From an uncultured virus (IMG/VR IMGVR_UViG_3300037466_002145) (taxonomy: Duplodnaviria > Heunggongvirae > Uroviricota > Caudoviricetes), in the IMG/VR virus record IMGVR_UViG_3300037466_002145, positions 19,148-83,147 of that record: 64,000 nt of DNA; one strand, written 5' to 3'. Below the pieces are notes generated by a model. It had not been told where the DNA came from, ran no database searches, and was given only the letters and a program-made list of their open reading frames with translations. Below, piece after piece: positions 12,794-28,660 of this stretch (within the stretch, counting starts at the first letter, position 1; each line of letters starts with the position of its first letter). Position numbers and translations under genes: made by a program.

Positions 12794-13623
12794 TACTTAC
12801 CTTTGCTTAGGTCGGTGACATTCGTGACATTACCAACAATCCAATGTTCGTAATCGCGAATGGCAGTCAAAACGTCGGCGCGGTCGTCTGCCGTCATGGT
12901 AGACAGAACCGTCTTAGCTTTGACTTTGGAGTGAGAGAGAATGTAGTTGAGATAGGTTCGCGGATTATAACCGTCCTTGGTCGGCGCGAACTTCTTGATG
13001 GCATTTTCAAGTGACAAATCTTTATAACCGAAGTCCGATTCAAAGAGGTAGGACTCCAGGGCTGCCATGCCGTCATCTTCGGATGCGAAGATAGCGAATG
13101 AACCATCGAAGCCGATGGCCTTATGCGTCTTGGCGAAGTTGTCGTAGAGAAGCTTGCCAGGGTTGTTATATCGCCATGATATTGAGCCACCAGTGCGGAC
13201 TTCAAAAGTGCCGTCTGGTTTCTTCATCGCGAAATAATACTTTTTGATCTTTTCGATGGTTGGGAAGACGGGAATCTTCGCTTCAAGGGTCGCGGCTTTG
13301 GCCTGTGCCGCTTGTGCGGTTTGCGTTGCCGTCTTGACCTGTTCGGTCAGAACCTGCGTCTGTGAAATACTCGATTGCAGTTGTGGGGCGATCTTCTTGG
13401 TCGTCGTGACCGTCGCGGCCTGATAGGCAAGGAACCCCGAGAACAATGCCGTAACGAAGATATGGCCGAGTGATTTCCACATCGGTTGAATTTCGACTGT
13501 CTTGGTTTCGACAGGGATCGGCGGCGGGTTTTCACTAATTTTCGGTGTTTCAACAGTTGCTGAAACAGGCGTATCTACTGAAACAGGTTGAACAGTAGTA
13601 TCAATAATTCTTTTTTCAGCCAT
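12793..13623 (-). CDS. Membrane-anchored lysozyme-like (WRYNNPG family) protein, paralog of 12170-12793
   Basis: TM segment (HIFVTALFSGFLAY), coiled coil, then SWRYNNPGKL...FAIF..EDDG...KKFAP..DG.NP..Y. Confidence 0.7.
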   Translation of the reverse strand: MAEKRIIDTTVQPVSVDTPVSATVETPKISENPPPIPVETKTVEIQPMWKSLGHIFVTALFSGFLAYQAATVTTTKKIAPQLQSSISQTQVLTEQVKTATQTAQAAQAKAATLEAKIPVFPTIEKIKKYYFAMKKPDGTFEVRTGGSISWRYNNPGKLLYDNFAKTHKAIGFDGSFAIFASEDDGMAALESYLFESDFGYKDLSLENAIKKFAPTKDGYNPRTYLNYILSHSKVKAKTVLSTMTADDRADVLTAIRDYEHWIVGNVTNVTDLSKGK

Positions 13624-13655
13624 TGCTTATACCCAATTTGTGAGGAAATACGTCC

Positions 13656-13662
13656 TATTTAG
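13656..13662 (-). promoter_or_regulatory. Putative T4-type late promoter CTAAATA
   Basis: CTAAATA about 35 nt upstream of the 13623 gene; the same motif recurs upstream of other genes (e.g. near 26757, 32190, 35434, 40363, 63264). Confidence 0.5.
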
Positions 13663-13667
13663 TAAAA

Positions 13668-14023
13668 TGCCTGCCTTCTGTTTCCAGGTGGCAGGCGACC
13701 CATGAAGCTTACGCCGCGAGGCGGATATCTTCGATAACGCTATTATCGTTTGCGTTTATACGTTTTCTTCGCGTTAACCCAGCTTAGATCGGGTACTGTC
13801 TTCTTCTCTTTTAACGTCATTCGATCCTATTTCGCGCCCATAAAGAAACACACTAACGAGTCCTACTTTGTCCAACCGCGAAGATGGTCATATCCTAACT
13901 CGCTTCTGGTATACCCTTCATCTAGTGTGAAGGCCCATGCGGTCCAATAGTAGTGTGTTTTTTGGTGGACGCGTCGGCTTTGCAGCCGAGTCATGTCCGT
14001 ATTATTACAAAAGCGTCATACAG
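13668..14023 (-). ncRNA. ssrA: Two-piece (circularly permuted) tmRNA, alphaproteobacterial type; tag ANDNSVIEDIRLAA*
   Basis: Acceptor piece ends ...CGCGTCCACCA (13963); coding piece starts GGGCGCGAAATAGGATCGA (13839) giving G3:U70; tag reading frame 13753-13709; 3' ACCTGGAAACAGAA hairpin. Confidence 0.92.
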
Positions 14024-14309
14024 TAATTACTTCTGCCTCTTTAGTTGAGACAATTCCTTACCCATTTCTTTGATCTTCTCATTCAGCATGGCGATTTTTT
14101 GATCCTTACGCGCGAGTTCGCCGTTAATGCCGCCCATGATGTGATACAAAGTGTATATCTTTGGCACCTTCAATTCACCTCCGATGATTTCACGTAGAAC
14201 GTGAGTCTCACCAGTTTTATGAAAGTCAGTTACCAATTCAGCCGCCAAGTCCATTAGGGCTTGAGGCTTGCCATACTTATACAATGGATCAATTTTTATC
14301 ATGGTGATT

Positions 14310-14384
14310 TGGAGTGAAGGGCGGGAATCGAACCCGTATGCTCAGTTTTGCAGACTGGCAAGGCACCCAGGCCAATCCCGACAC
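14310..14384 (-). tRNA. tRNA-Cys(GCA), degenerate acceptor stem
   Basis: CT-GCA-AA loop, GGTTCGATTCC T-arm, U73-CCA; two acceptor mismatches. Confidence 0.7.
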
Positions 14385-24228: not shown

Positions 24229-25683
24229 TTAGGCAGTCACACCTTCAATGCTATAGCGCTTGTCATTGAGGGTTTCCAACATGACGTTGTATGGAGAGAA
24301 CGTCTCCAGCTTGTTGGATAAAATGGACTTGAAGATAGCAGGCGAGAAGCCCGATACCATCGCAGTGCCATTTTGGTCTTCCTTGACGGGACTGTTGTCA
24401 GCCCGTCCGTTCACATGCCAGAACACAACCTTTGGCAGATCGTATCCATGCGCCGCGAACTTGGATTTCGCGTTGTTATAGGCCAAGTCAGACAATCCAG
24501 CGCGTTGCGGATTGAATTCCATGTCCGACACAACAAGGATCATGTTTGGCAAGTCGGCTTGCGGAACATTGTAGCGAATCGCGTGGTTCAACACGAGGTC
24601 GAACGTCGCTTCGATATTCGTTCCGCCGTAGGCGTCGGCAAAGTCCAACTGTTGGTACATGTTGGATAGGGTCAACGGCCCATTGAGCTTGTTCATGCGC
24701 GGAACATTTGAGAACCCAACCCACATACCTGCGAAGTCGCCCGTTTGCTTACCAGCGGTATACAAACCGATTGACACAGAGATATCCATCGGCGTCACGT
24801 TGCCTGGAACCGCATTGCGTTGGCCGTAGTAGCTCCATGATCCCATCGAGCTTGACAAGTCAATGAACGGCAGAATCTTGTTGTCGCCAAGCAAGTTCGG
24901 CAGCGCTTCCCATTGCGCGTCGGCAACCTTTCGATCACCGTGGTTCAGGGACTTCAGCACGTCGTAAGGGAACACCGCGCCCGCATTGATCTTGCGCTCG
25001 GCCTTACCCGTTTCAGGATTGATCTTCACCAAGCCATCACGATAAGCCTTGTACCCTTCGGGGTCGTGCTTGAAGAATGCCTTTTGATAACGTGCTGCGG
25101 CGACCGATGGCACGTGATCGTAGGTGATGCCCTTCCATTCGCGGGCGCACATTGGCGTTTCGACAACCTTCGTTAAAGTAACGAGGGTCTTGCGATAACG
25201 CTTGGGCGACCAGCCCAGGTAATTGCGGAGTGCCACGGCGTCCTTGCCCTTGCGAGGCATCCACTTGGCGCATAGGCCATTCTTGGCGTTCAGCGCGGCG
25301 GCAATGACCTTAAATGCTTGGTTGCGGGCGAAGTCGGTTTCGAAAACCAACAGGTCATCCCAACGGCCATACTCGGCCCAATATGGAAGGATCGCGACAA
25401 GGTCATCCTGATAGTTCTTTTCCATATGGCGAAGAATCTTGCGCGCAACTTCACGTTCGCCAGCGCCACCGCGGATATCGCGGGTCCACAACAGGGTGCG
25501 GATGGCGAGTCTCTTGTCTTCGGCGGTTGCCAAATCAAACTCTTTCGAGAGGTCCGCACCGCGTTGGCCCACAGCCTTGAATAGGTTCAGAACTCGCGAA
25601 CCTGAATCAGCATAGGTCACGGCACCATTGAAGGTAAGGCCCATGCTTGGCTTATTGGAAACTGAATTGACAAACTTGTTCAT
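24229..25683 (-). CDS. DUF2828-like TROVE/Ro60-related helical protein with C-terminal vWA domain
   Basis: RDIRGGAGER, YGRWDDL, AKWMPR, YRKTL, VETPMC..EW..I.Y..VPS.A..RY.KAF..HD, INAGAVFPYDV; vWA MIDAS DLSSSM, GGTN, SDMEF, VFWHV, SGFSP; AAGGAG RBS before the ATG at 25683. Confidence 0.85.
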   Translation of the reverse strand: MNKFVNSVSNKPSMGLTFNGAVTYADSGSRVLNLFKAVGQRGADLSKEFDLATAEDKRLAIRTLLWTRDIRGGAGEREVARKILRHMEKNYQDDLVAILPYWAEYGRWDDLLVFETDFARNQAFKVIAAALNAKNGLCAKWMPRKGKDAVALRNYLGWSPKRYRKTLVTLTKVVETPMCAREWKGITYDHVPSVAAARYQKAFFKHDPEGYKAYRDGLVKINPETGKAERKINAGAVFPYDVLKSLNHGDRKVADAQWEALPNLLGDNKILPFIDLSSSMGSWSYYGQRNAVPGNVTPMDISVSIGLYTAGKQTGDFAGMWVGFSNVPRMNKLNGPLTLSNMYQQLDFADAYGGTNIEATFDLVLNHAIRYNVPQADLPNMILVVSDMEFNPQRAGLSDLAYNNAKSKFAAHGYDLPKVVFWHVNGRADNSPVKEDQNGTAMVSGFSPAIFKSILSNKLETFSPYNVMLETLNDKRYSIEGVTA

Positions 25684-25704
25684 TGTTATCACTCCTTTTT
25701 GTTA

Positions 25705-25766
25705 CAGAATTATTGCAGGCCAGTCGTGCCTGCGTGTCAGTGACGATTTTAAGCTGAAATAATTCT
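25705..25766 (-). ncRNA. CAGC-stem unit 1 (in the 5' leader of the DUF2828 gene)
   Basis: AGAATTA-TTTCAGC...TAATTCT-G; internal GCAGGC/GCCTGC hairpin. Confidence 0.7.
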
Positions 25767-25770
25767 CTTA

Positions 25771-25863
25771 CTGACTAATAATATGCCCCCAACGGGCCAT
25801 TCCCTATAAAGGCGGGGAATGTTGGATTCGAACCAACTGTTTTTTGTGTGCTGAAATTAGTCG
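25771..25863 (-). ncRNA. CAGC-stem unit 2, YrlA-like topology (T arm, loop-closed acceptor stem, D arm)
   Basis: CGACTAA-TTTCAGCA..GTTGG TTCGAAT CCAAC, ATTCCC/GGGAAT, GCCC-GTTGG-GGGC, TTAGTCA-G. Confidence 0.75.
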
Positions 25864-25870
25864 AAATTGA

Positions 25871-25987
25871 CAGATTTGCTTTTTTAAGGGTTGGAATCGA
25901 ACCAACTACACTTCGCTTTGAATGCGAATGCTCAACCAAATGAGCTTCCCGTCCAGATGGACGATATTTGTTTGCTGAAACAAATCT
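25871..25987 (-). ncRNA. CAGC-stem unit 3 enclosing tRNA D, anticodon (TCA) and T arms with no acceptor end
   Basis: AGATTTG-TTTCAGCAA..GCTC/GAGC, TTCGC-AT TCA AA-GCGAA, GTTGG TTCGATT CCAAC..CAAATCT-G. Confidence 0.75.
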
Positions 25988-26004
25988 TAATCTGAAAAAT
26001 TTAG

Positions 26005-26109
26005 CAGGCTTACTTTGATCCAGGCTCGCGCCTGTTTCGGGATCGAACCGAATAACCAACTGAGTTGCCTCAGTAAGTATCTACCAGATTGTTTTGCTGC
26101 AATAAGCCT
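26005..26109 (-). ncRNA. CAGC-stem unit 4 with T-arm-containing module
   Basis: AGGCTTA-TTGCAGCAA..ACTGAG GCAA CTCAGT, TTCGG TTCGATC CCGAA, CAGGC GCGA GCCTG..TAAGCCT-G. Confidence 0.75.
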
Positions 26110-26120
26110 ATAATTAGTGG

Positions 26121-26268
26121 CGGAATAGCAGTGCTGGCACTTGAGTTTTTTTGAGTACGCCCAGGGTCAATGCTGAAACACCCTTCGTCGTAAGAACTTA
26201 CCCGAAGGTTTTGTCTTACATCGTTTTACAAATGCCCTTGCGGGCGGTTTGGCTGCGGTATCTATTCC
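26121..26268 (-). ncRNA. CAGC-stem unit 5, with nested mini-unit at 26162-26184
   Basis: GGAATAG-ATACCGCAGC...CTATTCC-G; nested AGGGT-GTTTCAGCATTG-ACCCT-G. Confidence 0.6.
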
Positions 26269-26283
26269 AGTATTCGTGTATGT

Positions 26284-26374
26284 CAGAATGATTATCTACT
26301 TCGGGATTAATGTGGCGAAATCGAAGCCCACTTCTCTATACCAGAAAGTTTTATTTGGTTGCTGAAATCATTCT
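26284..26374 (-). ncRNA. CAGC-stem unit 6
   Basis: AGAATGA-TTTCAGCAA...TCATTCT-G; internal GGCTTCGATTTCGCC T-loop-like element. Confidence 0.75.
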
Positions 26375-26383
26375 TGTATTCAG

Positions 26384-26722
26384 TTAGTGATGTTCGTCGC
26401 GATGTTCATCGGCCCATTCCTTGGCCGCAGCGTTACGAACAGATTTAGGAAACATCTTAGACCAGTGCTGATCCTTTGATCCAAACTCCTTGTGGTAAGC
26501 TTGGGCTGCACGGTCGGCATGATATCCCCAAAGCTTGATGGCTTTTTCGTGATTGTACACGCCTTTGGCATGTTTCTTCAAAAGGTTCTTTTCAATCGGA
26601 ACTTTCGAAGAATGATACAAGTGAGAATCGTTATCAGCAAAGATGCGGAGTTCTCTTACATCGGTGTGATTTACATCACCATCCTCTTTTTCAAGAAGGA
26701 TTTTTCTTAGGGATTTGGACAT
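26384..26722 (-). CDS. Hypothetical basic/His-rich protein
   Basis: 112-aa ORF; CTAAATA late-promoter-like motif upstream. Confidence 0.65.
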   Translation of the reverse strand: MSKSLRKILLEKEDGDVNHTDVRELRIFADNDSHLYHSSKVPIEKNLLKKHAKGVYNHEKAIKLWGYHADRAAQAYHKEFGSKDQHWSKMFPKSVRNAAAKEWADEHRDEHH

Positions 26723-27201
26723 TACGCTTCCTATTAGAGTGAGGGTTAGTAATGTCTATTTAGTCATTCCAAGTTGCAACGATGGCATTCACATGAGCAA
26801 AATATCTCGGACCATCTGGACCTTGAAAAGTGAAGTATTTGGCGACTAATAAATTGGCTCCAGGTTGGAAATCCCTATCTCTAATCGCAGAGACTGCATC
26901 AACCAGCTTGCACGAATATAACAAATTCTCGGGCAAGTTTTTCTTCGACGGTTTGGACAACGGAAAGATGCCCGACACTTCAACGTAATCTTTAGTAACT
27001 GACATCTTAACTCCTATAGGGGAACTTGGTGTTGACGATGCCCATAAGGTATCCAACTGATGCCAAAAGGACCAAAGTCAAAGTGTAGGCAAAGACATTA
27101 GGGAAACTCATTATCGCAACAAGACCGATCAATAGGGCCAATCCGAGGATGATAACCGTTTCGATCATAAATCTTCCATAGTCAGGATTTTGCATTTCAA
27201 A

Positions 27202-27708
27202 TTACTCAGTCAAATAGCTGCGCTTGTCTTGCTTTTCCCAGGACGGTGAATCGCCGTCCTTGATGTATTCTTCCTGAATGATCCAATCGCGAATAATCGG
27301 TGCGATGGTCTCGGACGTGATCACCCATTCGGTTGCAATCGTGGCAACCACCACAGGAAGAATGACGTACCATTGAGTCATCCACGGACCGAGGAAGTAG
27401 ACGAAGATTCCCAAACTGAGGAACATCGCCACGTTGAGAACTACCCAGGCGACACAGGCTCGGCCCATAAATCCTGGACGGCGTACTTTCTTTGCGTCAC
27501 GGTCATACATATTATAAGGTTCCTTAAAAGTCGGACGACGAGAAGTCAGGGGTTGAAAAATCCGATGTAGAATTCCCAGAATCGTCGCTACTAAAATCAG
27601 AGGTGCCCATTCCAGCCAATCCCGCGTCTTCGGTCCCACTATCCATCCCAGGAACGGGAGACAAATCAGGAATATCGCAAGATACATCAGAAGGTCGAGT
27701 ATCGTCAT
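27202..27708 (-). CDS. Predicted membrane protein (4 TM)
   Basis: Several hydrophobic segments. Confidence 0.6.
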   Translation of the reverse strand: MTILDLLMYLAIFLICLPFLGWIVGPKTRDWLEWAPLILVATILGILHRIFQPLTSRRPTFKEPYNMYDRDAKKVRRPGFMGRACVAWVVLNVAMFLSLGIFVYFLGPWMTQWYVILPVVVATIATEWVITSETIAPIIRDWIIQEEYIKDGDSPSWEKQDKRSYLTE

Positions 27709-27924
27709 TATATACGTCCTGATTGGGGATCAATTCCGACATTACGATATTGAGTAAGATTGCATCCATAATCAGATCGCCGTCGTCCTCAGTTACGTTG
27801 GACCGTTGTAAGGAACGCCGTGCTTCAAACATCGATAGTGGCAGAAGGCCAGCGTTCCGACGTTTGGTATTAATTTCAGTAAGCTTCTTTTCAGAAAGCA
27901 TTAGGTTCCCCCTCATGGTATTTA

Positions 27925-28210
27925 CAGGATCATCTTTATAAGTGTGCTACCCTTACACCAAGAGCCCATCAGAGATACATAAAAGCTGGCACCTGTATCA
28001 GAACCAATTAAGGCACACTTCTTAGCACACGAAGTCTAAGCACATGCCACTACCCAACTACGAGTAGCTATCTGACCACCGAAAACCTTGCCAGTCGGCG
28101 TAGGTAGTTATCCTACTTGGCTTTCGCAGTTATGTATCTTTGGTGGACTCCCCCCGAATCGAACGTGGACCACTGCTTTGATAGAGCAAATTAGTTGCTG
28201 AACTGATCCT
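27925..28210 (-). ncRNA. CAGC-stem unit 7: permuted tRNA-like shell with CCA, G3:U70 and a 173-nt insert
   Basis: AGGATCA-GTTCAGCAA..T arm CCACG TTCGATT CGGGG, GGAGTCC-A-CCA, insert 28140-27968, GGGCTCT-TG, D arm GTGT AAGGGTA GCAC..TGATCCT-G. Confidence 0.75.
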
Positions 28211-28246
28211 TGATCGTTTTCATTCAAGGATATTTGGAGTATTTAC

Positions 28247-28317
28247 CTGAATAGCTTTTACAGATCGATTAAAGGTCGATTGCTGGAATACCAGCGTTTA
28301 TTTGCTGAAACTATTCA
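28247..28317 (-). ncRNA. CAGC-stem unit 8
   Basis: TGAATAG-TTTCAGCAA..GCTGG/CCAGC..CTATTCA-G. Confidence 0.75.
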
Positions 28318-28401
28318 AACTAGGTTCAATACCACGCCTGCAATCTTACGAGTAGCAGCATCCCTCCGCGAAGGGACGTTCTCCGTATGGTATTGAAATA
28401 G

Positions 28402-28471
28402 TGGAGCCAAGTGAGGGATTTTCACCCCCGTCATCACTCATGGTGATGTTTTAGGTCAAAACTAACTCGGC
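28402..28471 (-). ncRNA. Atypical tRNA-like element with CCA
   Basis: GCCGAGT/ACTTGGC-T-CCA acceptor; T-loop TGAAAAT; no canonical anticodon loop. Confidence 0.5.
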
Positions 28472-28477
28472 AAGAGG

Positions 28478-28574
28478 TGGAGTCGGGGGAAGGATTTGCG
28501 CCTTCAACTCTTGATGTTTGGGAGGCGGCGAGGCGTCCAAAAAATCAATACTCTAATATTTGAGTTACCCCGAC
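28478..28574 (-). ncRNA. Atypical tRNA-like element with elongated anticodon arm and CCA
   Basis: GTCGGGG/CCCCGAC-T-CCA; ACTC/GAGT D stem; TTGAT/ATCAA stem enclosing 28 nt; T-loop CGCAAAT. Confidence 0.55.
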
Positions 28575-28588
28575 ATAAAGGGAGTTAT

Positions 28589-28648
28589 CAGATTGGCTTT
28601 TGCTTTTTTTCTCCAAAAGAAAAGGCAATTGTTTGCTGCAACCAATCT
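28589..28648 (-). ncRNA. CAGC-stem unit 9
   Basis: AGATTGG-TTGCAGCAA...CCAATCT-G. Confidence 0.7.
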
Positions 28649-28660
28649 TTCAATTTTTGT

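Follow-up and report, generated by a model that had tools for sequence, protein, structure and literature searches.

The window analysed in this work is a stretch of 64,000 nucleotides (nt) of viral DNA that forms part of an 83,147-base IMG/VR virus record (IMGVR_UViG_3300037466_002145; estimated completeness 38%). Our subject is a 285-nt element on the minus strand of this window (27926-28210), which lies on the same strand as a gene for a Ro60-like protein (24229-25692) and 2.2 kb upstream of it, within the distance of about 4 kb used as a criterion for YrlA RNAs. Our analyses lead us to regard this element as, on balance, probably a Y-RNA-like RNA of a phage Ro60-like ribonucleoprotein system, whose transcript would be matured to two pieces with a CCA end. 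The body of this RNA would be a permuted transfer RNA (tRNA) mimic of the YrlA type, consisting of T arm, acceptor stem and D arm, in which a terminal helix, hereafter the clamp, replaces the anticodon stem. Its acceptor arm would not be closed by a loop; it would lead from A73-CCA through a structured intervening sequence of 173 nt and the leader CUGAU to G1. The main support for the element is comparative and not thermodynamic.

Architecture of the element and its RNA family

An earlier reading of this DNA, made from its letters alone (the sequence-only reading), had proposed a Y-like RNA with a circularly permuted tRNA-like module, and this proposal is supported both by the layout of the element and by comparative evidence. 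The features of the element, together with the gene downstream of it, are given below; those for which no other source is named were read from the sequence (bp, base pairs).

28204-28210, minus strand: 5' arm of the clamp helix, AGGAUCA, paired with 27926-27932 in the minimum free energy (MFE) fold
28196-28203, minus strand: GUU and the CAGCA motif (CAGCA at 28200-28196), just inside the clamp
28169-28195, minus strand: variable-arm-like linker of 27 nt with GCUCUAUCAAAGCAGUG, kept in loci L002 and L008/L027
28152-28168, minus strand: T arm CCACG-UUCGAUU-CGGGG, matched at 43.5 bits by the covariance model R1 described below, with covariation in the T stem
28145-28151, minus strand: 3' strand of the acceptor stem, GGAGUCC (positions 66-72), forming 7 pairs with 27961-27967
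28141-28144, minus strand: A73 (28144) and CCA (28143-28141), encoded in the DNA
27968-28140, minus strand: insert of 173 nt with a closing stem, an inner multi-hairpin fold and the CUGAU leader
27968-27972, minus strand: 5-nt leader CUGAU, before G1
27961-27967, minus strand: 5' strand of the acceptor stem, GGGCUCU (positions 1-7), paired with GGAGUCC
27944-27960, minus strand: U8, G9 and the D arm GUGU-AAGGGUA-GCAC (arm 27944-27958)
27926-27943, minus strand: A-rich 3' linker ACUUAUAAAGA and 3' arm of the clamp, UGAUCCU (27926-27932), then GU
24229-25692, minus strand: gene for the Ro60-like protein, with DUF2828 and DUF7788 (Pfam) and a match to phrog_850 'RNA-binding protein' (PHROGs, E 5.1e-128)

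The acceptor stem consists of the pairs G1-C72, G2-C71, G3:U70, C4-G69, U5-A68, C6-G67 and U7:G66 with A73 as discriminator, and the G1-C72, G2-C71, G3:U70 and A73 that had been claimed are therefore all present on the minus strand. The stem of the T arm contains a single A x G mismatch. The sequence also confirms the claimed insert of exactly 173 nt (28140-27968) with a closing stem, which is made up of 10 bp between AGAUACAUAA (28139-28130) and UUAUGUAUCU (27982-27973). An anticodon stem-loop is absent from the element; the linkers and the clamp occupy its place, and the RNA ends at the clamp, 18 nt past the D arm. All of the blocks are found in the order and at the places proposed for them, but the 'CAGC closing stem' said to enclose them is not: CAGC(A) has no complementary partner in the sequence or the MFE fold, the element is closed by the helix AGGAUCA/UGAUCCU, next to which CAGCA lies as a conserved motif.

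The folding energy of the whole element is not significant alone (z -1.41, with 8 of 100 shuffles equally good); the insert folds significantly by itself (z -2.89, with none of 200 shuffles as good). No Rfam family matches 27925-28210 at gathering score or at E values up to 10, the search of the insert region that had been suggested likewise giving no match up to this value, and the eight weak Rfam matches within 27000-29500 are noise. The region 27500-28700 has no BLASTN match in 50,697 phage records, an exact 24-mer of the T arm and acceptor end has no match in IMG/VR, and a metagenome scan with a pattern of linker and T loop has recovered three stretches, each of them a copy of L002 or L008. 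A BLASTN comparison of the element with all fetched loci has found no homologue of the insert interior, and within the collections searched this interior appears to stand alone. The window is rich in tRNA genes (20, in addition to a permuted transfer-messenger RNA (tmRNA) gene at 13618-14054, all on the minus strand according to ARAGORN and Rfam), of which 16 encode CCA; ACCA follows the tRNA-Ala. This tRNA-Ala was considered as a source of the element and rejected, only G1-G3, UG and the GUGU D stem being common to both.

The clamp and the motif beside it constitute a handle, viz. a helix of 6-10 bp whose sequence differs between copies, followed on its 5' side by 0-3 nt and CAGC(A), which recurs in related viral loci. 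We have fetched 80 viral loci with homologues of the Ro60-like protein, and for the 65 in which the gene stands at a fixed place the positions of such modules could be contrasted: 62 of these 65 loci have one or more clamp+CAGCA modules on the gene strand, no further than about 0.8 kb upstream or 0.9 kb downstream of the gene, and the density of modules near the gene on its own strand is 1.26/kb, compared with 0.18/kb on the opposite strand and 0.36-0.38/kb elsewhere. This position-based contrast replaces a first, looser definition of the module (467 modules on the strand of the gene and 334 on the other, with 190 in shuffles), and a loosened T-loop search, which gave many false rows, was used only for rows with a tRNA-type T loop. 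The consensus of the handle is (U)AGGNUNN - 1-3 nt - CAGCA ... NNANCCU-G-U. Among 21 aligned homologues CAGCA is invariant (21/21), and the clamp covaries, its 7 pairs being paired in 100% of cases with 6 of them changed on both sides; for the acceptor helix the paired fraction is 96.6% and each of its 7 pairs shows changes on both sides, slid partners in the tests of acceptor and clamp reach 33-49%, and the T stem covaries as well, although the rows had been pre-selected for pairing or clamp and these counts overstate the independent support.

The bodies enclosed by the clamp are variable and include hairpins of 54-62 nt, tRNA-like RNAs of about 100-135 nt, an RNA of about 240-255 nt and tRNA-like RNAs with long inserts. 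The RNA of about 240-255 nt is a recurrent clamp+CAGCA RNA beside the Ro-like gene that is not tRNA-like; it has the conserved blocks GGCUUGCGGAACUGAACCGAUAUACUGGGGA and CAGAAAAUAAAAUAC, and its loci include L033 3697-3945, L036 3693-3940, L039 3689-3942, L041 3687-3940, L048 3665-3924, L063 5577-5819 and others. One example of a multiple arrangement is the complete phage L027 (70,155 bases), in which five tandem modules precede the gene, two of them tRNA-like with acceptor stems closed by GCAA. The Ro-like gene of this phage (record 7267-8646, minus strand; 41% identity) is read through six in-frame TGA, which suggests that this phage reads TGA as a sense codon; the homologue in the L298 record has one TGA. 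The closest relative is L002, whose Ro-like protein is 82% identical and whose orthologous RNA has the same clamp AGGAUCA/UGAUCCU, CAGCA, a near-identical linker and the same 3' linker. The architecture of these loci is that of the Y RNAs beside Ro60, in which a number of RNAs combine a terminal stem bearing a conserved motif with an effector module that varies, and the tRNA-like members of the family are laid out as YrlA is (PMC4201824; bioRxiv 10.1101/312249). From these comparisons the clamp with its adjacent CAGCA is a common handle and probably the binding site of the Ro-like protein. The family was not found in Rfam 15 or in the literature searched, which was largely without subscription journals; within the same literature no Y RNA is described that encodes its CCA and carries an insert of the tmRNA type, and the titles found for DUF2828 contain nothing on RNA.

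The Ro-like protein has 7367 relatives at E <= 1e-10 among 8000 scored candidates. A search of the PDB with its sequence has given nothing (best E 0.3), and Pfam TROVE does not match it at E values up to 10; only the comparison of folds ties this protein to Ro60. For an AlphaFold2 model of it, built on an alignment of 27 sequences (pLDDT 78.8, pTM 0.72), the 13 top-ranking PDB matches are all Ro60 structures (E 2.1e-8 to 4.8e-5; TM about 0.4-0.55), among them the TROVE domain/Ro60 of phage phiLo, Rsr of D. radiodurans, and Xenopus and human Ro60, with vWA domains ranking next; the best match is phiRo60 (9kop, 9l5y). The description of the protein as TROVE-like in the sequence-only reading is justified by this predicted fold.

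The acceptor end, the insert and the proposed maturation of the RNA

A covariance model (R1) of the core, viz. T arm, acceptor stem and D arm, was built from 21 seeds and used to search 766 kb. It has given 365 matches at E up to 0.1, and the classification that follows covers the best 150 of these. ARAGORN tRNA genes are overlapped by 107 of the 150, of which 101 have no clamp, and 8 more have neither clamp nor tRNA. At least 6 of the 7 acceptor pairs are formed in 14 of the 101 clamp-less matches at tRNA-tRNA junctions and in 34 of the 35 clamp-flanked matches outside tRNA genes, it being noted that the 21 seed rows, which were chosen for pairing, account for 19 of the 34, and that two are duplicates. 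In 14 of the 34 the sequence NCCA (9 ACCA, 5 GCCA) directly follows the seventh acceptor nucleotide, where about 0.5 would be expected by chance, and the segment after the acceptor strand, NCCA included, is 7-15 nt long in ten of the 14 and 58, 76, 136 and 177 nt long in the other four. On this sequence evidence the encoded CCA is a trait of the family. The same matches bear on the possibility that the element is a functionless remnant of two neighbouring tRNA genes, with the T arm and 3' end of the first, a spacer, and the 5' end and D arm of the second. The window has many tRNA genes, and the junctions of tRNA genes do show this order of parts and score with R1; the same artefact is warned of by Chen et al. 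in the available part of PMC4201824. We consider this origin extremely unlikely: the acceptor strands of the element are complementary at 7 of 7 positions, neither ARAGORN nor Rfam calls a tRNA there, the unit is enclosed by a clamp+CAGCA handle and orthologous to the L002 RNA, and the same design recurs in many phages.

The borders of the insert provide a second line of evidence. In the element they read UCC-ACCA-A-AGAUACAU ... UGUAUCU-CUGAU-GGG, and L046 has both borders alike, with ACCA-W-AGAUACAU at the start and UGUAUCU-YUGAU-GGG at the end. A scan of IMG/VR with two 15-mers from these borders has found at least 113 and at least 120 stretches, single matches including chance ones in open reading frames (ORFs); among the matches listed, the 3' border lies 70-139 nt downstream of the 5' border in 45 of 113 stretches. 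The context of the paired borders is a permuted tmRNA gene, in which the T arm and CGCCUCC-ACCA are followed by the bordered intervening sequence, GGGGGCGAAAUAGGAUCGAC and the tag frame. At least 89 contexts have a tmRNA-type 5' end by a simple pattern with duplicates removed, and in all 12 loci tested Rfam tmRNA_permuted scores above gathering over the border site. Near-invariant borders of the form ACCA-W-AGAUACAU ... UGUAUCU-YUGAU-GGG are present in many phage permuted tmRNA genes (L108-L318, e.g. L111, L113, L125 and L138), the interior between them being freely variable and about 55-125 nt long. The window's own tmRNA (13618-14054; Rfam tmRNA_permuted 93.1 bits, alpha_tmRNA 74.9 bits; tag ANDNSVIEDIRLAA) is without the AGAUACAU/UGUAUCU borders.

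Five other Y-like RNAs with clamp, CAGCA and T arm have the same borders among the matches listed (L298, L046/L197, L251, L260 and L271). The best structural homologue of the element is that of L298, whose clamp is identical and whose linker is similar; a 7-bp acceptor stem with ACCA leads there into a bordered insert of about 70 nt, which is followed by UUGAU and a D arm. Four distinct Y-like RNAs show borders of a second type, ACCA-UCAUYCAUUACCUC ... UGAU-G; the 17 stretches recovered with this border include no tmRNA. The inserts of the L052 type within this group (about 130 nt) are homologous and share a three-hairpin fold in which 7 of 42 pairs are compensatory in three sequences; the inserts lie at L052 3550-3681, L331 1016-1148 (minus strand) and L332 3443-3580, and L057 has a short form of 54 nt. 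In every long insert a helix of its own of 8-11 bp begins 0-2 nt past NCCA and ends 2-6 nt before position 1. Alignment of the four long-insert RNAs for wider relatedness has given nothing convincing outside the border sequences. The comparison of sequences points to an intervening-sequence junction that is common to tmRNA and Y-like RNA genes, and the conservation of its border stem may reflect, among other things, a signal for processing, a site bound by protein or hot spots of recombination. The analogy with two-piece tmRNA that had been drawn for the element is strengthened by these borders, which are the same as in many phage permuted tmRNA genes.

Bacterial RNase P prefers a U at position -1, and the U before G1 of the element suits this preference. 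The precursor would be matured in the manner of two-piece tmRNA or of the M. smegmatis YrlA, with an RNase P cut 5' of G27967 and, on the 3' side, a cut inside the insert and trimming back to the CCA at 28141. The product would consist of pieces of about 70 nt and about 42 nt, joined by the clamp and acceptor helices and having a tRNA-like free acceptor end, and the insert would be discarded or released. Such two-piece maturation is likely because NCCA after a 7-bp stem recurs and the borders match those of an intervening sequence that is removed from tmRNA. By analogy, we favour for the 173-nt segment, which had been described as a structured cargo, the role of an excised or structural intervening sequence over that of a delivered RNA, although conservation of the L052-type inserts leaves room for a cargo.

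The region may be transcribed. Parts of the stretch occur in 17 public runs, of which seven are rhizosphere metatranscriptomes, and four RNA runs were compared; these are assembled contigs whose ends and strand are not readable, and RNA libraries can contain DNA. RNA contigs at 100% identity cover 28096-28378 (X7), 28097-28245 (X10), 28188-28331 (X12) and 28197-28368 (X13). Contig X7 spans a neighbouring 70-nt module (28248-28317) and the 5' half of the element as one stretch, which fits a common precursor of the two. Contigs X7 and X10, which come from two studies, run 44-45 nt beyond the CCA and both end at 28096/28097, 3-4 nt after a hairpin of the insert, their shared stop being a weak hint of an RNA end. 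The read-through of the CCA may represent unprocessed, partly processed or differently processed molecules, or library DNA, and it neither proves nor excludes maturation. The four RNA runs do not cover 27783-28095 or 28379-28600, which is not evidence of absence or of cleavage; the DNA runs X1-X4 contain all sampled words of 27880-28330.

These contigs are also what would be expected if the RNA were never opened and its acceptor arm formed one long helix, the whole acting as a single piece of 285 nt on the Ro-like protein. The ACCA-A/CUGAU internal loop would then be structural or protein-binding, e.g. as a mimic of a tRNA or tmRNA precursor by which RNase P, a 3' exonuclease or some other factor that binds tRNA ends would be bound or titrated. 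The helices of the inserts, which adjoin NCCA and position 1, would keep such an arm continuous, the inserts of the L052 type are conserved and structured as if kept for a purpose, and most YrlA RNAs are thought to be closed according to the available part of bioRxiv 10.1101/312249. However, precursors too would give read-through contigs, the combination of 7 bp, N73 and CCA is the signature of RNase P and tRNA ends and occurs 14 times, the same borders flank a removed segment in tmRNA genes (PMC11915505, as far as its available text goes), and an arm of this kind is cut in vivo in the M. smegmatis YrlA (available part of PMC4201824). We therefore consider an unopened RNA possible but doubtful, and clearly less probable than maturation to two pieces.

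Besides the contigs that pass the CCA, a number of observations weigh against a two-piece Y-like RNA with a CCA end. Between its clamp and T arm the element lacks GNCGAAN0-1G, the motif by which YrlA binds Ro60. There is no CCA in 20 of the 34 clamp-type tRNA-like members, and in the complete 283-kb phage with L298 the RNA with the same borders lies about 49 kb from the Ro-like gene. In L002 the acceptor arm of the orthologous RNA has 7 bp and is closed by a loop of 3 nt, CCA, insert and G3:U70 all being absent, and an open acceptor end is therefore not essential to the role of the RNA; comparison of the two sequences indicates that the arm was wholly exchanged, not merely interrupted, in the lineage of the window. 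Lastly, G3:U70 is found in the element only, i.e. in one of the 14 NCCA-type modules and in none of seven further RNAs (L298, four of the L046 type and two of the L052 type). The sequence-only reading had named homologues without conserved G3:U70 and CCA as an outcome that would speak against it, and by this criterion the L002 RNA counts against a conserved chargeable end; CCA does recur (14/34), but G3:U70 is not conserved (1/21).

The resemblance to tmRNA can also be taken further, to an RNA that is derived from tmRNA without its tag and would affect trans-translation as a decoy or competitor for SmpB, EF-Tu or AlaRS, with the Ro-like protein uninvolved and the clamp incidental. The acceptor end and the insert borders are tmRNA-like and include G3:U70, the phage has a normal permuted tmRNA gene as well, and tmRNA forms without a coding sequence, both permuted and standard, are listed in the available part of PMC11915505, one of which, from phage DS6A, inhibits the host tmRNA in E. 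coli. On the other hand, the Rfam permuted-tmRNA model misses the element at E up to 10 and scores 93 bits on the true tmRNA, the D arm of the element is complete and its T loop of the tRNA type, its clamp, CAGCA motif and linker have their orthologous counterparts in a closed YrlA-like RNA of L002, and five other Y-like RNAs with the same borders have G3-C70. An SmpB gene was not found in the 83-kb contig, nor were a CCA-adding enzyme and RtcB, but this contig is 38% complete, so nothing follows from these absences. A tmRNA-derived decoy is in our view very unlikely.

Neighbouring modules and ORFs

The window contains eight clamp+CAGCA RNAs of the kind described above at 25706-28648 on the minus strand, all with CAGC[A/U]. 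Features that accompany the element are listed here.

28661-28689, minus strand: promoter-like TTGACT-17-TAGAAT, sigma-70-like, matching 10 of 12 positions (consensus match only)
28590-28648, minus strand: clamp+CAGCA module of 59 nt just downstream of the promoter match, with a homologous module in L002
28248-28317, minus strand: clamp+CAGCA module of 70 nt with UGAAUAG/CUAUUCA, adjoining the element
26374-26285, 26110-26005, 25987-25872, 25862-25773 and 25766-25706, minus strand: five clamp+CAGC modules directly upstream of the Ro-like gene, read from the sequence

Both promoter hexamers and their spacing recur in L002. The region 28320-28590 (minus strand), between two clamp modules, has no ORF of at least 60 amino acids (aa), contains G+C-rich hairpins and lies as far as 28378 in RNA contig X7; a further structured RNA may be located there. 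The module at 25872-25987 (minus strand) is a second kind of tRNA mimic at this locus: the parts of its body are ordered as in a normal tRNA (D arm, anticodon-like arm and T arm), its acceptor stem has only 2 bp, and the Rfam tRNA model matches positions 6-65 of it with 38 bits (25888-25949).

Directly after the element is an ORF of 130 aa (27524-27916, minus strand), which probably starts at an ATG near 27901 behind the ribosome-binding site GAGGGGG; it has no Pfam or PHROGs match, and a counterpart of it also trails the orthologous RNA in L002. The T-loop-like sequence GGTTCGANTCC has 25 matches in the window, where 4.9 are expected, and occurs outside ARAGORN tRNA genes (at 14324, 18384, 19961, 43170 and 50390, minus strand); these sites may be further tRNA-like RNAs or degenerate tRNAs.

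Alanine identity, known systems and significance

AlaRS reads G3:U70 together with A73, G1-C72 and G2-C71 in tRNA-Ala, tmRNA and minihelices. The element contains this identity set, viz. G3:U70 in a 7-bp acceptor helix with A73, G1-C72 and G2-C71, and because these rules are established its processed form should be a substrate of AlaRS; charging with alanine would be plausible chemistry if the acceptor end were freed. Most other comparable RNAs have G3-C70, one transition away from G3:U70, and the tmRNA genes with the same borders read U70-C71-C72-ACCA, as the element does. The G3:U70 of the element may represent neutral drift or may have arrived with the tmRNA-like end, and, as far as the sequences compared indicate, alanine identity is a property of this copy and not of the family. 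An extended possibility is that host AlaRS charges the two-piece RNA with alanine, as it does tmRNA, and that this RNA is an adaptor from the Ro60-like ring and a recruited nuclease to EF-Tu or ribosomes, or a competitor of the host tmRNA, while the excised 173-nt RNA persists as a separate stable RNA. We regard this as unlikely; if true, no Y RNA would have been shown to be aminoacylated before this one, and RNA surveillance of the Ro60 type would be tied directly to translation.

Of the known systems, the closest is the YrlA of M. smegmatis, the available accounts of which (PMC4201824; bioRxiv 10.1101/312249) describe an RNA with a 7-bp acceptor stem that is cut by RNase P in vitro and in vivo and whose 5' half ends in CCA; a potential aminoacylation is raised by the authors in the available part of PMC4201824. 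The statement in the sequence-only reading that described YrlA RNAs are closed and not chargeable overlooks this RNA, which, by the same part of PMC4201824, is cut by RNase P and gains its CCA in vivo. The element resembles it in the permuted tRNA-like module, the 7-bp acceptor stem and the gene of the Ro60 type downstream, and in M. smegmatis a second Y RNA lies on one precursor with it (available part of PMC4201824). It differs in that the M. smegmatis YrlA has a short acceptor loop and receives CA after cleavage, whereas the element encodes ACCA and carries a structured 173-nt insert with tmRNA-type borders. The motif of the terminal stem is CAGCA in the family of the element and GNCGAAN0-1G in the M. 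smegmatis YrlA, and the protein is Ro-like with DUF2828/DUF7788 in the window and a Pfam TROVE Ro60 in M. smegmatis.

The YrlA of Salmonella Typhimurium, as presented in the available part of bioRxiv 10.1101/312249, has the same order of terminal stem, variable-arm-like linker, T arm, acceptor stem and D arm, with tRNA-type T and D loops; unlike the element, it has a loop-closed acceptor stem of 6 bp without CCA and is not cut by RNase P. The Thermus phage phiLo, with Yrl1 and Yrl2, and phiRo60 provide a further parallel, viz. a phage protein of the Ro60 type with several Y-like RNAs upstream (available part of PMC12135203). The phiLo RNAs were chosen by a CGAA motif in a stem-bulge-stem, and a tRNA-like module with CCA is not described for them in that part of the source. 

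Two-piece tmRNA, the maturation of which by tRNA-processing enzymes is known, shares with the element the permuted order, G1G2G3/U70C71C72-A73-CCA and, in the phage genes, identical insert borders. In contrast to it, the element has no tag frame, pseudoknots or reduced D region and no match to an Rfam tmRNA model, the only tmRNA called by ARAGORN being that at 13618-14054, and its ends are tied by the clamp. In algae and archaea, the products of circularly permuted tRNA genes pass through a circular intermediate and become normal tRNAs with an anticodon loop. The element resembles these genes in the succession of T arm, 3' acceptor strand, CCA region, intervening sequence, 5' acceptor strand and D arm, and differs from them in having no anticodon arm. 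The element can hence be described as a putative YrlA-type Y RNA crossed with a split in the style of tmRNA, the two-piece Y RNA itself having already been published for M. smegmatis.

This locus supplies natural variants of the tRNA-like half of bacterial Y RNAs in which the acceptor end seems designed for opening, with an encoded CCA, a 7-bp stem and the insert borders of phage split-tmRNA genes. It offers the concrete hypothesis that some Y RNAs present a free, and perhaps charged, tRNA end. The clamp+CAGCA RNAs seem to form a large family of Y-like RNAs around a widespread phage Ro60-like protein that is filed only as DUF2828/DUF7788. A third point of interest is that tmRNA and Y-like RNA genes have an intervening-sequence junction in common.

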